Part shown: positions 4,544-22,868 of the stretch, one piece after another | Numbering within the stretch: position 1 is the first letter of the stretch | Layout: each line of letters begins with the position of its first letter | DNA from: Escherichia coli | GTDB lineage: Bacteria > Pseudomonadota > Gammaproteobacteria > Enterobacterales > Enterobacteriaceae | Assembly: GCF_001677475.2 (NCBI RefSeq) | Contig: NZ_CP015229.1 | Length of the DNA: 64,000 nucleotides | Reading direction: 5' to 3' (one strand) | Notes under the pieces: generated by a model | The model's database searches: none | What the model saw: only the letters and a program-made list of their open reading frames with translations | Told to the model about the DNA's origin: nothing | Made by a program: the position numbers and the translations under genes

Positions 4544-4572
4544 TTAACCATTCCCATACAATTAGTTAACCA

Positions 4573-4605
4573 AAAAGGGGGGATTTTATCTCCCCTTTAA
4601 TTTTT
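4573..4605 (+). terminator. rho-independent terminator after clpX
   Basis: hairpin aaagggggg-atttt-atc-tcccctttaa followed by T-run. Confidence 0.75.
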
Positions 4606-4612
4606 CCTCTAT

Positions 4613-4650
4613 TCTCGGCGTTGAATGTGGGGGAAACATCCCCATATACT
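4613..4650 (+). promoter_or_regulatory. sigma32 heat-shock promoter of lon
   Basis: TCTCGGCGTTGAA (-35) and CCCCATATA (-10) with 14-nt spacer; matches recalled lon heat-shock promoter. Confidence 0.8.
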
Positions 4651-4730
4651 GACGTACATGTTAATAGATGGCGTGAAGCACAGTCGTGTCATCTGATTAC
4701 CTGGCGGAAATTAAACTAAGAGAGAGCTCT

Positions 4731-18808: not shown

Positions 18809-20095
18809 ATGAAGATAGCGACGATAAAAACTGGGCTTGCTTCACTGGCGATGCTGCCGGGACTGGTAATGGCTGCACCTGCGGTGGCCGATAAAGCCGA
18901 CAATGCGTTTATGATGATTTGTACTGCGCTGGTGCTGTTTATGACTATTCCGGGGATTGCCCTGTTTTACGGTGGGTTGATTCGCGGCAAAAACGTGCTG
19001 TCGATGCTGACGCAGGTGACGGTGACGTTTGCACTGGTCTGTATTCTCTGGGTGGTTTACGGTTACTCGCTGGCGTTTGGTGAGGGAAACAACTTCTTCG
19101 GCAACATTAACTGGTTGATGCTGAAAAACATCGAACTGACGGCGGTGATGGGCAGCATTTATCAGTATATCCACGTAGCGTTTCAGGGATCGTTTGCCTG
19201 CATTACCGTAGGCTTGATAGTTGGAGCACTGGCGGAACGAATCCGCTTCTCAGCTGTGTTGATTTTCGTGGTTGTATGGCTGACGCTCTCCTACATTCCG
19301 ATTGCGCATATGGTCTGGGGCGGCGGTTTGCTGGCTTCTCACGGTGCACTGGATTTCGCGGGTGGCACGGTGGTGCACATTAACGCCGCAATCGCCGGCC
19401 TGGTGGGCGCGTATCTGATAGGCAAACGCGTGGGCTTCGGCAAAGAGGCGTTTAAACCGCACAACCTGCCGATGGTCTTCACCGGGACTGCCATTCTCTA
19501 TATCGGTTGGTTTGGCTTTAACGCCGGGTCAGCGGGCACGGCGAATGAAATCGCAGCACTGGCATTTGTGAATACTGTGGTCGCAACGGCGGCGGCAATT
19601 CTTGGCTGGATCTTCGGTGAATGGGCGCTGCGTGGTAAGCCTTCACTGCTGGGAGCGTGTTCAGGCGCGATTGCCGGTCTGGTCGGCGTGACGCCAGCGT
19701 GTGGCTACATTGGTGTTGGCGGCGCGTTGATTATCGGCGTGGTAGCTGGTCTGGCGGGCTTGTGGGGCGTTACCATGCTCAAACGCTTGCTGCGGGTGGA
19801 TGATCCCTGCGATGTCTTCGGTGTGCACGGCGTTTGTGGCATTGTCGGCTGTATCATGACCGGGATTTTTGCTGCCAGCTCGCTGGGCGGCGTGGGCTTC
19901 GCTGAAGGTGTGACGATGGGCCATCAGTTGCTGGTACAGCTGGAAAGCATCGCCATTACGATCGTCTGGTCCGGTGTGGTGGCATTTATTGGCTACAAAC
20001 TGGCGGATCTGACGGTTGGTCTGCGTGTGCCGGAAGAACAAGAGCGAGAAGGGCTGGACGTCAACAGCCACGGCGAGAATGCCTATAACGCGTAA
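18809..20095 (+). CDS. amtB: ammonium transporter AmtB (428 aa)
   Basis: signal peptide and multiple TM segments; matches E. coli AmtB; 29 nt downstream of glnK. Confidence 0.97.
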   Translation: MKIATIKTGLASLAMLPGLVMAAPAVADKADNAFMMICTALVLFMTIPGIALFYGGLIRGKNVLSMLTQVTVTFALVCILWVVYGYSLAFGEGNNFFGNINWLMLKNIELTAVMGSIYQYIHVAFQGSFACITVGLIVGALAERIRFSAVLIFVVVWLTLSYIPIAHMVWGGGLLASHGALDFAGGTVVHINAAIAGLVGAYLIGKRVGFGKEAFKPHNLPMVFTGTAILYIGWFGFNAGSAGTANEIAALAFVNTVVATAAAILGWIFGEWALRGKPSLLGACSGAIAGLVGVTPACGYIGVGGALIIGVVAGLAGLWGVTMLKRLLRVDDPCDVFGVHGVCGIVGCIMTGIFAASSLGGVGFAEGVTMGHQLLVQLESIAITIVWSGVVAFIGYKLADLTVGLRVPEEQEREGLDVNSHGENAYNA

Positions 20096-21824: not shown

Positions 21825-22214
21825 TTAGTAGTTCCAGCGATAACGCTGCAAGTCGATTTGCCCGCTTCCCGATACCATCACACCTTCTGCCAGTAATGCC
21901 TGTCGTTGACGCTGTAAATCCGGTCCGGTTAGCGAAATTGTGCCGTGGCGATTAACCACCCGGTGCCAGGGCAAGGAGCTGCCTTCAGGGAGACGCTTTA
22001 ACACACCGCCCACCTGGCGCGCGGCGCGGGGCGATCCTGCCAGTTTCGCCACATCACCGTAAGTGGTGACATAGCCTTCGGGAATAGCGGCGACGATTTG
22101 CCAGACGCGTTGGGGAAATGAATCTTCTTTTTCCATCTTTTCTTCCTGAGGTAATTTTTCAGCATAATCTGGAAAAACGCCCGAGTGAAGTCGCATTGCG
22201 CAAGAAACCAGCAT
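21825..22214 (-). CDS. atl: alkyltransferase-like DNA base-flipping protein (129 aa)
   Basis: ORF 21825..22235; start at MLVSCAMRLH (22214); matches E. coli Atl (YbaZ). Confidence 0.93.
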   Translation of the reverse strand: MLVSCAMRLHSGVFPDYAEKLPQEEKMEKEDSFPQRVWQIVAAIPEGYVTTYGDVAKLAGSPRAARQVGGVLKRLPEGSSLPWHRVVNRHGTISLTGPDLQRQRQALLAEGVMVSGSGQIDLQRYRWNY

Positions 22215-22229
22215 CCGGCACGCAATGGG

Positions 22230-22258
22230 TTGCAATTAGCCGGGGCAGCAGTGATAAT
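22230..22258 (+). promoter_or_regulatory. putative sigma70 promoter of ffs precursor
   Basis: TTGCAA (22230-22235), 17-nt spacer, GATAAT (22253-22258); predicted start about 25 nt upstream of mature 4.5S 5' end. Confidence 0.6.
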
Positions 22259-22290
22259 GCGCCTGCGCGTTGGTTCTCAACGCTCTCAAT

Positions 22291-22404
22291 GGGGGCTCTG
22301 TTGGTTCTCCCGCAACGCTACTCTGTTTACCAGGTCAGGTCCGGAAGGAAGCAGCCAAGGCAGATGACGCGTGTGCCGGGATGTAGCTGGCAGGGCCCCC
22401 ACCC
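22291..22404 (+). ncRNA. ffs: 4.5S RNA (signal recognition particle RNA), 114 nt
   Basis: sequence GGGGGCTCTGTTGGTTCTCCCGCAACGC...CAGGGCCCCCACCC matches E. coli 4.5S RNA; between atl and ybaA as in K-12. Confidence 0.97.
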
Positions 22405-22514
22405 ATTTCTGCCTCCCCCCGTTTCGTCAAAAAATCCCAATATGGCTAAACTTTAACCACAACTGACGTCGCAAGAATTGTCTGGCTGCGCAGTACGCTT
22501 CGGAGGTATGTCTG

Positions 22515-22868
22515 ATGAAGTATGTTGATGGTTTTGTGGTTGCCGTTCCTGCCGATAAAAAGGATGCCTATCGGGAAATGGCTGCTAAGGCTGCGCCATT
22601 GTTTAAAGAGTTTGGCGCGCTTCGTATTGTCGAATGCTGGGCCAGCGATGTACCGGATGGCAAAGTGACCGATTTTCGTATGGCGGTGAAAGCGGAAGAA
22701 AATGAAGAGGTTGTCTTTAGCTGGATTGAATACCCTTCAAAAGAGGTCCGCGACGCAGCTAATCAAAAGATGATGTCGGACCCACGGATGAAAGAGTTCG
22801 GCGAGTCCATGCCGTTTGACGGCAAGCGAATGATCTATGGCGGATTCGAGTCAATCATCGACGAATAG
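22515..22868 (+). CDS. ybaA: DUF1428 family protein YbaA (117 aa)
   Basis: MKYVDGFVVAVPADKKDAYREMAAKAAPLFKEFGALRIVECW... matches E. coli YbaA. Confidence 0.95.
   Translation: MKYVDGFVVAVPADKKDAYREMAAKAAPLFKEFGALRIVECWASDVPDGKVTDFRMAVKAEENEEVVFSWIEYPSKEVRDAANQKMMSDPRMKEFGESMPFDGKRMIYGGFESIIDE

Follow-up and report, generated by a model that had tools for sequence, protein, structure and literature searches.

Background

The interval 22230-22404 of a 64,000-nucleotide stretch of Escherichia coli DNA (assembly GCF_001677475.2, contig NZ_CP015229.1; the whole stretch is hereafter referred to as the window and provides the coordinates) raises the question of where the primary transcript of the ffs gene starts and ends, how it is converted into the mature 4.5S RNA, and whether the leader removed on the way could have a function of its own. 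The locus is almost certainly E. coli ffs, with a sigma70 promoter, a 26-nt leader cut by RNase P and a 3' end trimmed by RNase T. This locus is already known, its promoter, its start at -26, its processing by RNase P and its leader hairpin with the conservation of the latter having all been published. The value of the present analysis therefore lies mostly in a correct annotation, in which ffs is a 114-nt mature RNA preceded by a 26-nt leader and a promoter at 22230-22258, and from which an overlapping 112-aa open reading frame (ORF) is dropped. Automated annotation (Rfam, PGAP), at 97 nt, falls short of the mature ends of ffs as well as of its primary transcript. Some value for research attaches solely to the leader hairpin, which is strictly conserved and resembles the 5' region in which a folding intermediate forms.

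Results and discussion

Identity of the locus and the mature 4.5S RNA

The features of the mature RNA are as follows.

22291-22404, + strand: mature 4.5S (SRP) RNA, gene ffs, 114 nt, identical to K-12 b0455 at 114/114 positions
22299-22395, + strand: core aligned to the whole Rfam RF00169 model (Bacteria_small_SRP, positions 1-97 of 97), bit score 68.1 (gathering score 40), E = 5.5e-13
22343-22346, + strand: GGAA tetraloop capping domain IV (Ffh-binding end), loop of the minimum-energy fold
22401-22404, + strand: single-stranded 3' ACCC overhang, unpaired in the predicted fold

Read in order, the interval 22230-22404 consists of TTGCAA, 17 nt, GATAAT, GCGCCT, GCGCGTTGGTTCTCAACGCTCTCAAT and then GGGGGCTCTG...GGGCCCCCACCC, this last part corresponding to 22291-22404; the mature RNA starts with GGGGGCUCUG and ends with GCCCCCACCC. 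The reference gene in MG1655 (NC_000913.3) is b0455, located at 476448-476561 and annotated as 'signal recognition particle 4.5S RNA'. Alignment to this genome revealed complete identity of the 114-nt RNA, the leader and the promoter, and just four SNPs over 421 nt, all of them flanking (window 22216, 22224, 22418 and 22441). The gene order, ybaY, atl/ybaZ, ffs, ybaA and pdeB, is also that of K-12. The window itself comes from a non-K-12 E. coli, the 421 nt being 100% identical to those of strain 135 and others.

The original prediction of an exact 114-nt 4.5S RNA is borne out at 22291-22404 by this identity to K-12 ffs, and the Rfam scan that it proposed as a check, carried out with covariance models on the whole window against Rfam 15, returned RF00169 over the full length of the model and well above the gathering score. 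Both the Rfam model and the PGAP annotation are limited to a 97-nt core, to which the curated 114-nt RNA adds 8 nt on the 5' side and 9 nt on the 3' side. The predicted minimum-energy fold of the 114-nt RNA is one long hairpin (-57 kcal/mol, z = -3.15 relative to shuffles). The features of a small SRP RNA are found together here, namely a score exceeding the gathering score, a single hairpin carrying GGAA and orthology to the characterised ffs. The GGAA-capped domain IV is the known Ffh-binding end of the 4.5S RNA, and the binding of Ffh as well as a role in co-translational targeting would follow from the identity to the characterised RNA. The mature RNA also contains the motif ACCAGGTCAGGTCCGGAAGGAAGCAGC, cited as an Ffh-binding motif (PMC7967276).

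The locus is nearly universal in the species. A 421-nt query around the site was matched in 5424 of the 5426 complete E. coli genomes, several of the matches being 100% identical, and among the matches listed all were annotated ffs and flanked by the gene of an MGMT-family protein and by ybaA. Promoter and leader together are single-copy in the same proportion of genomes (5424/5426), with at least 99% identity in 5038 of them. Two of the 5424 matches to the ffs region lie on plasmid-labelled records, and two complete E. coli genomes were without a match; as the gene is essential, both findings are surprising, and errors of assembly or labelling may lie behind them. A seemingly disrupted ffs in the E. 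coli genome H18, where the match stopped at query base 73, was rejected, the gene being intact and the alignment merely trimmed.

Conservation outside the species was assessed on relatives retrieved with an exact 35-nt core pattern, one genome per species, giving 29 ffs loci with 27 distinct sequences from Escherichia, Citrobacter, Salmonella, Kluyvera, Pluralibacter, Pseudenterobacter and Intestinirhabdus. Because an exact match to the 35-nt core was used, this sample represents close Enterobacteriaceae only, Klebsiella, Enterobacter, Yersinia and others being outside its reach.

Promoter and transcription start

Upstream of the mature RNA, the following elements were delineated.

22230-22235, + strand: -35 hexamer TTGCAA of the ffs promoter, from the promoter scan, 5/6 positions invariant in the 27 distinct relatives
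22253-22258, + strand: -10 hexamer GATAAT, 17 nt past the -35 hexamer, from the promoter scan, 5/6 positions invariant in the relatives
22259-22264, + strand: G+C-rich discriminator GCGCCT, separating the -10 hexamer from the start, from sequence reading, 4/6 positions invariant in the relatives
22265 (K-12 476422), + strand: transcription start G at position -26, 7 nt past the -10 hexamer and in agreement with the published -26 ends

The two hexamers match 9 of the 12 consensus positions and constitute the lone sigma70-like site revealed by a consensus scan of 21900-22800. One site against a mean of 0.4 in shuffled sequences (sd 0.5) means that the match alone is not statistically compelling, and the promoter call is persuasive because of the conservation in relatives and the published mapping of the start. 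Among the 27 distinct sequences, the mean frequency of the majority base reaches 0.99 in the hexamers versus 0.82 in the spacer and 0.82 in the upstream DNA; the spacer is invariant at just 4 of its 17 positions, and the DNA upstream of the -35 hexamer is variable.

Since the -10 hexamer ends at 22258, transcription is expected to start at G22265, i.e. at -26. RNA-seq of RNase P-depleted cells located the 5' ends of pre-4.5S RNA mainly at -26 and in some cases around -153 and -127 (Gößringer et al., PMC5499578), and in a re-analysis of the dRNA-seq data of Thomason et al. the primary start of ffs preceded the annotated 5' end by 26 bp (PMC7967276). The sigma70 promoter TTGCAA-17-GATAAT of the original prediction, along with the start that it placed about 25 nt upstream of the mature end, agrees with the single site of the scan, the conservation of its hexamers, the -26 position predicted here and published elsewhere, and the published leaders of 22-26 nt.

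The minor 5' ends near -127 and -153, as well as primer-extension products longer than expected (PMC5499578), imply that some transcripts may start further upstream. Most of the transcription of ffs could even be supposed to originate there (window ~22164/22138), inside the atl 5' region, with a leader of more than 100 nt processed stepwise, a scheme that also fits with promoter predictions at -160 and -130 (PMC5499578). We regard this as very improbable, given that the same study describes the 5' ends as 'primarily at -26', that the dRNA-seq primary start is at -26 as well (PMC7967276), that a second promoter-like site is missing from 21900-22800 in the consensus scan, and that conservation peaks on the proximal hexamers, the region from -100 to -62 being less conserved. 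Initiation at G22265 from the proximal promoter is thus the reading retained below.

This promoter shares with the sigma70 promoters of stable RNAs (rRNA and tRNA) a near-consensus -10 hexamer, a 17-nt spacing and a GCGCC sequence right after the -10 hexamer; it differs from them in showing no evident A+T-rich, UP-element-like sequence upstream of the -35 hexamer on reading the sequence. G+C-rich discriminators are tied to the stringent and growth-rate control of stable-RNA promoters. By analogy with this general knowledge, the GCGCC discriminator of ffs suggests a control of the stable-RNA type, either stringent or related to growth rate.

The leader and its removal by RNase P

Two features are located between the start and the mature 5' end.

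22265-22290, + strand: 5' leader of pre-4.5S RNA, 26 nt, GCGCGUUGGUUCUCAACGCUCUCAAU, 21/26 positions invariant in the relatives; its removal by RNase P is known from the literature
22267-22283, + strand: leader hairpin with stem GCGUUG/CAACGC and a 5-nt loop, from folding and conservation

The leader has a predicted fold energy of -8.2 kcal/mol, and its hairpin is kept in the predicted fold of the full precursor and at most nascent lengths. In the precursor, the leader hairpin and the main helix are predicted to coexist, separated by 6-7 unpaired nt, these being the last nucleotides of the leader; the base of the main helix is formed by GGGGGC/GCCCCC and is followed by ACCC. The precursor accordingly presents the features of an RNase P substrate, with a transcript extending 5' of the mature end, a helix resembling an acceptor stem, an RCC overhang on the 3' side and unpaired leader nucleotides adjoining the cleavage site.

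The processing itself is well established. Pre-4.5S RNA accumulates when the bacterial RNase P is replaced by PRORP, the E. coli RNase P cleaves the precursor in vitro (PMC5499578), and the leader is cleaved off pre-4.5S RNA during processing (10.1101/379222; PMC7049720). The RNase P-processed 5' leader put forward in the original prediction is therefore in line with these three studies. With pre-4.5S RNA (p4.5S) as a classical substrate of RNase P, the transcript deduced here shares a leader whose last base is U(-1), a long terminal helix and a cleavage 5' of G+1, as well as a 3' ACCC resembling the RCCA end of tRNAs, and the window displays no sequence difference in this respect. The difference lies in the length of the leader: published values range from 22 to 26 nt, the biochemical papers giving 22, 23 or 24 nt against the 26 nt derived from the promoter and RNA-seq (PMC5499578; 10.1101/379222; PMC7967276). 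A more distant parallel is offered by the scRNA of Bacillus subtilis, a large SRP RNA likewise made as a precursor trimmed at both ends (PMC1935012); a 354-nt precursor is cut there by RNase III (Bs-RNase III), whereas the 26-nt leader of E. coli ffs is removed by RNase P.

Conservation of the leader and its possible function

Across the 27 distinct relatives the leader displays contrasted constraints, the stem being invariant at 12/12 positions and the 7-nt tail at 7/7, as opposed to 0/5 in the loop, which is reduced to 4 nt in some Kluyvera. Among these close relatives the stem is characterised by invariance, with no covariation. An extra 5' stem-loop of the ffs transcript has previously been described and found to be conserved among Enterobacteriaceae, including several genera beyond the present sample (PMC7967276).

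The leader also resembles a part of the mature RNA. Positions 22269-22288 align with mature nt 10-33 (22300-22323), as GTTGGTTCT----CAACGCT-CTC versus GTTGGTTCTCCCGCAACGCTACTC, with a score of 27, 19 matched positions and two gaps; in 5000 shuffles of the leader this score was never attained. Other genera show a weaker similarity, their observed scores being equalled or exceeded in 2 to 130 of 2000 shuffles. This repeat is absent from the papers on ffs examined here, the leader hairpin itself being already published (PMC7967276). Mature nt 10-33 are located in the 5' region where H1 forms, a non-native 5' hairpin reported to be an obligatory co-transcriptional folding intermediate of the SRP RNA (10.1101/379222).

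These observations raise the possibility that the leader is a conserved functional module, whose hairpin would have a function of its own, instead of a disposable extension. Conceivable functions are to insulate or guide the co-transcriptional folding of the SRP RNA, to tune the recognition by RNase P, or to give rise to a stable leader fragment. Such a function would be consistent with the invariance of stem and tail over seven genera next to a variable spacer and loop, with a hairpin predicted to be stable and to persist at most nascent lengths, with the alignment of the leader to a segment of the H1 region, and with a leader-containing fragment reported in cells (PMC7967276). The published studies of SRP RNA folding all used AUC in place of the native leader (10.1101/379222), and a function in folding, if true, would have been missed by them for this reason. 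We nevertheless consider a function of the leader unlikely. Cells in which the 4.5S RNA keeps an unprocessed 5' extension are viable, as are cells supplied with a plasmid-borne 4.5S RNA that needs no processing (PMC5499578; PMC7049720); in other genera the repeat is far less pronounced; and the invariance of the stem, observed without covariation and in close relatives only, may reflect constraints linked to RNase P or to promoter escape, or short divergence times. The reading that we favour remains that of a leader whose fate is removal by RNase P.

The 3' end and a proposed path to the signal recognition particle

The 3' side of the gene is marked by one further feature.

22405-22412, + strand: conserved 3' flank ATTTCTGC, a probable 3' trailer and termination zone with a putative role in termination

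These 8 nt are the sole conserved sequence downstream of ffs: the mean frequency of the majority base over the 27 distinct sequences is 0.89 at 22405-22412 versus 0.58 in the next 17 nt, where the genera diverge completely. A search for a canonical intrinsic terminator (G+C-rich hairpin followed by a U run) downstream of 22404 was negative, the 4.5S helix being followed only by ACCC-AUUUCU. Trimming by RNase T is known to halt at CC, leaving the 4-nt ACCC overhang on the 4.5S RNA (PMC3439924). A terminator-like match at 22282-22296 was rejected, as it straddles the junction between leader and mature RNA and represents one occurrence against 1.2 expected by chance. In Citrobacter sp. Res13 (L022), a tandem array of about 4 copies of CTCTTTCACTTCCT is present past the ffs 3' flank and is absent from the other Citrobacter loci.

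Taken in order, the steps leading to the signal recognition particle are very probably the following. The sigma70 promoter, made of TTGCAA, 17 nt, GATAAT and the G+C-rich discriminator, would start the ffs transcript at G22265, and transcription would end shortly after the helix, inside the conserved AUUUCUGC. The primary transcript would carry the 26-nt leader as a small hairpin and a single-stranded tail, UCUCAAU, ahead of the 4.5S body, which would fold into the long hairpin, its paired 5' and 3' ends together with the ACCC overhang mimicking the acceptor stem of a tRNA. RNase P would then cleave the bond joining U(-1) (22290) to G(+1) (22291), and 3' exonucleases, chiefly RNase T, would trim the short trailer down to ...ACCC at 22404, both activities being drawn from the literature. 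The signal recognition particle would finally arise by binding of Ffh to domain IV of the mature 114-nt RNA, capped by GGAA. In this scheme, the identity of the RNA, the match to the model, the hexamers and their conservation, the conservation of the leader and the folds were computed here, and the -26 start, the RNase P cleavage and the RNase T trimming come from published work.

The overlapping open reading frame and the neighbouring genes

Three reading frames surround or overlap the locus.

22118-22456, + strand: spurious 112-aa ORF overlapping ffs, from the ORF list; no Pfam family, frame broken in relatives
21825-22136, - strand: atl/ybaZ, divergent neighbour, MGMT-family DNA base-flipping protein; Pfam PF01035, 2.5e-27, annotated in related records
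22515-22868, + strand: ybaA (DUF1428), downstream neighbour; Pfam PF07237, 2.3e-48, annotated in related records

No stop interrupts the 112-aa ORF in the window or in the majority of E. coli and Citrobacter sequences, as would be expected of a protein-coding gene overlapping ffs. There is practically no chance that it is one. The ORF gave no Pfam match, unlike its two neighbours, and it is unannotated both in K-12 and by PGAP. Stop codons or indel shifts affect its frame in E. albertii, Kluyvera, C. amalonaticus, Pseudenterobacter, S. diarizonae and Intestinirhabdus, the frame-shifting indels of the relatives being located in the promoter spacer and the leader loop. Moreover, the part of the ORF that is conserved is precisely the RNA gene, and its conservation is explained by the constraints acting on the RNA. 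The absence of a Pfam match and the interruption of the frame in relatives are the grounds on which we agree with the earlier view of this ORF as spurious, and the RNA gene is the only one of the two that should be annotated.

The start of atl/ybaZ differs between records, the protein having 129 aa from 22214 in K-12 and 103 aa from 22136 in the PGAP annotation. The K-12 start lies just 16 nt from the -35 hexamer of ffs, and in the 103-aa form the Pfam domain starts at residue 7. The minor upstream 5' ends of ffs at -127 and -153 (PMC5499578) would fall within this disputed stretch.

An attachment site at the 3' end of ffs

The 29-nt sequence TAGCTGGCAGGGCCCCCACCCATTTCTGC at 22384-22412 of the window, composed of the last 21 nt of ffs and the 8-nt conserved flank, corresponds to the attachment site of a genomic island. 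In the window this site is empty, as indicated by the single copy of the 29-nt repeat. In E. coli NZ_CP180604.1, an island of about 10.8 kb is inserted between ffs and ybaA and is bounded by a direct repeat of this 29-nt sequence; it encodes a tyrosine integrase, ImmA/IrrE, HigB, a recombinase and hypothetical proteins. Besides 22384-22412 of the window, the coordinates belonging to this observation are 20005-20033 and 30792-30820 in L033, and 1649-2737 in L008. A related integrase was found beside ffs in two of the 5426 complete E. coli genomes.

Related integrases also adjoin ffs in Pluralibacter, S. arizonae and C. werkmanii. Pluralibacter and S. arizonae have common foreign DNA right after ...ACCCATTTCTGC, and C. 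werkmanii harbours a related foreign sequence with a slightly different junction (ATTTCAGG). The foreign DNA of Pluralibacter opens with the gene of a 362-aa tyrosine integrase (PF00589, 3.5e-12). In Enterococcus, ffs was presented in 2025 as a 'novel' attachment site for phage (PMC12540744).

Other structured RNAs in the window

The scan against Rfam gave four further matches above the gathering score in the window.

4564-4659, - strand: sraA, 106.7 bits
39198-39262, + strand: dnaX ribosomal frameshift element, 96.8 bits
47283-47360, + strand: naRNA4/CssrE, 80.7 bits
53037-53120, + strand: sroB/ChiX, 82.1 bits
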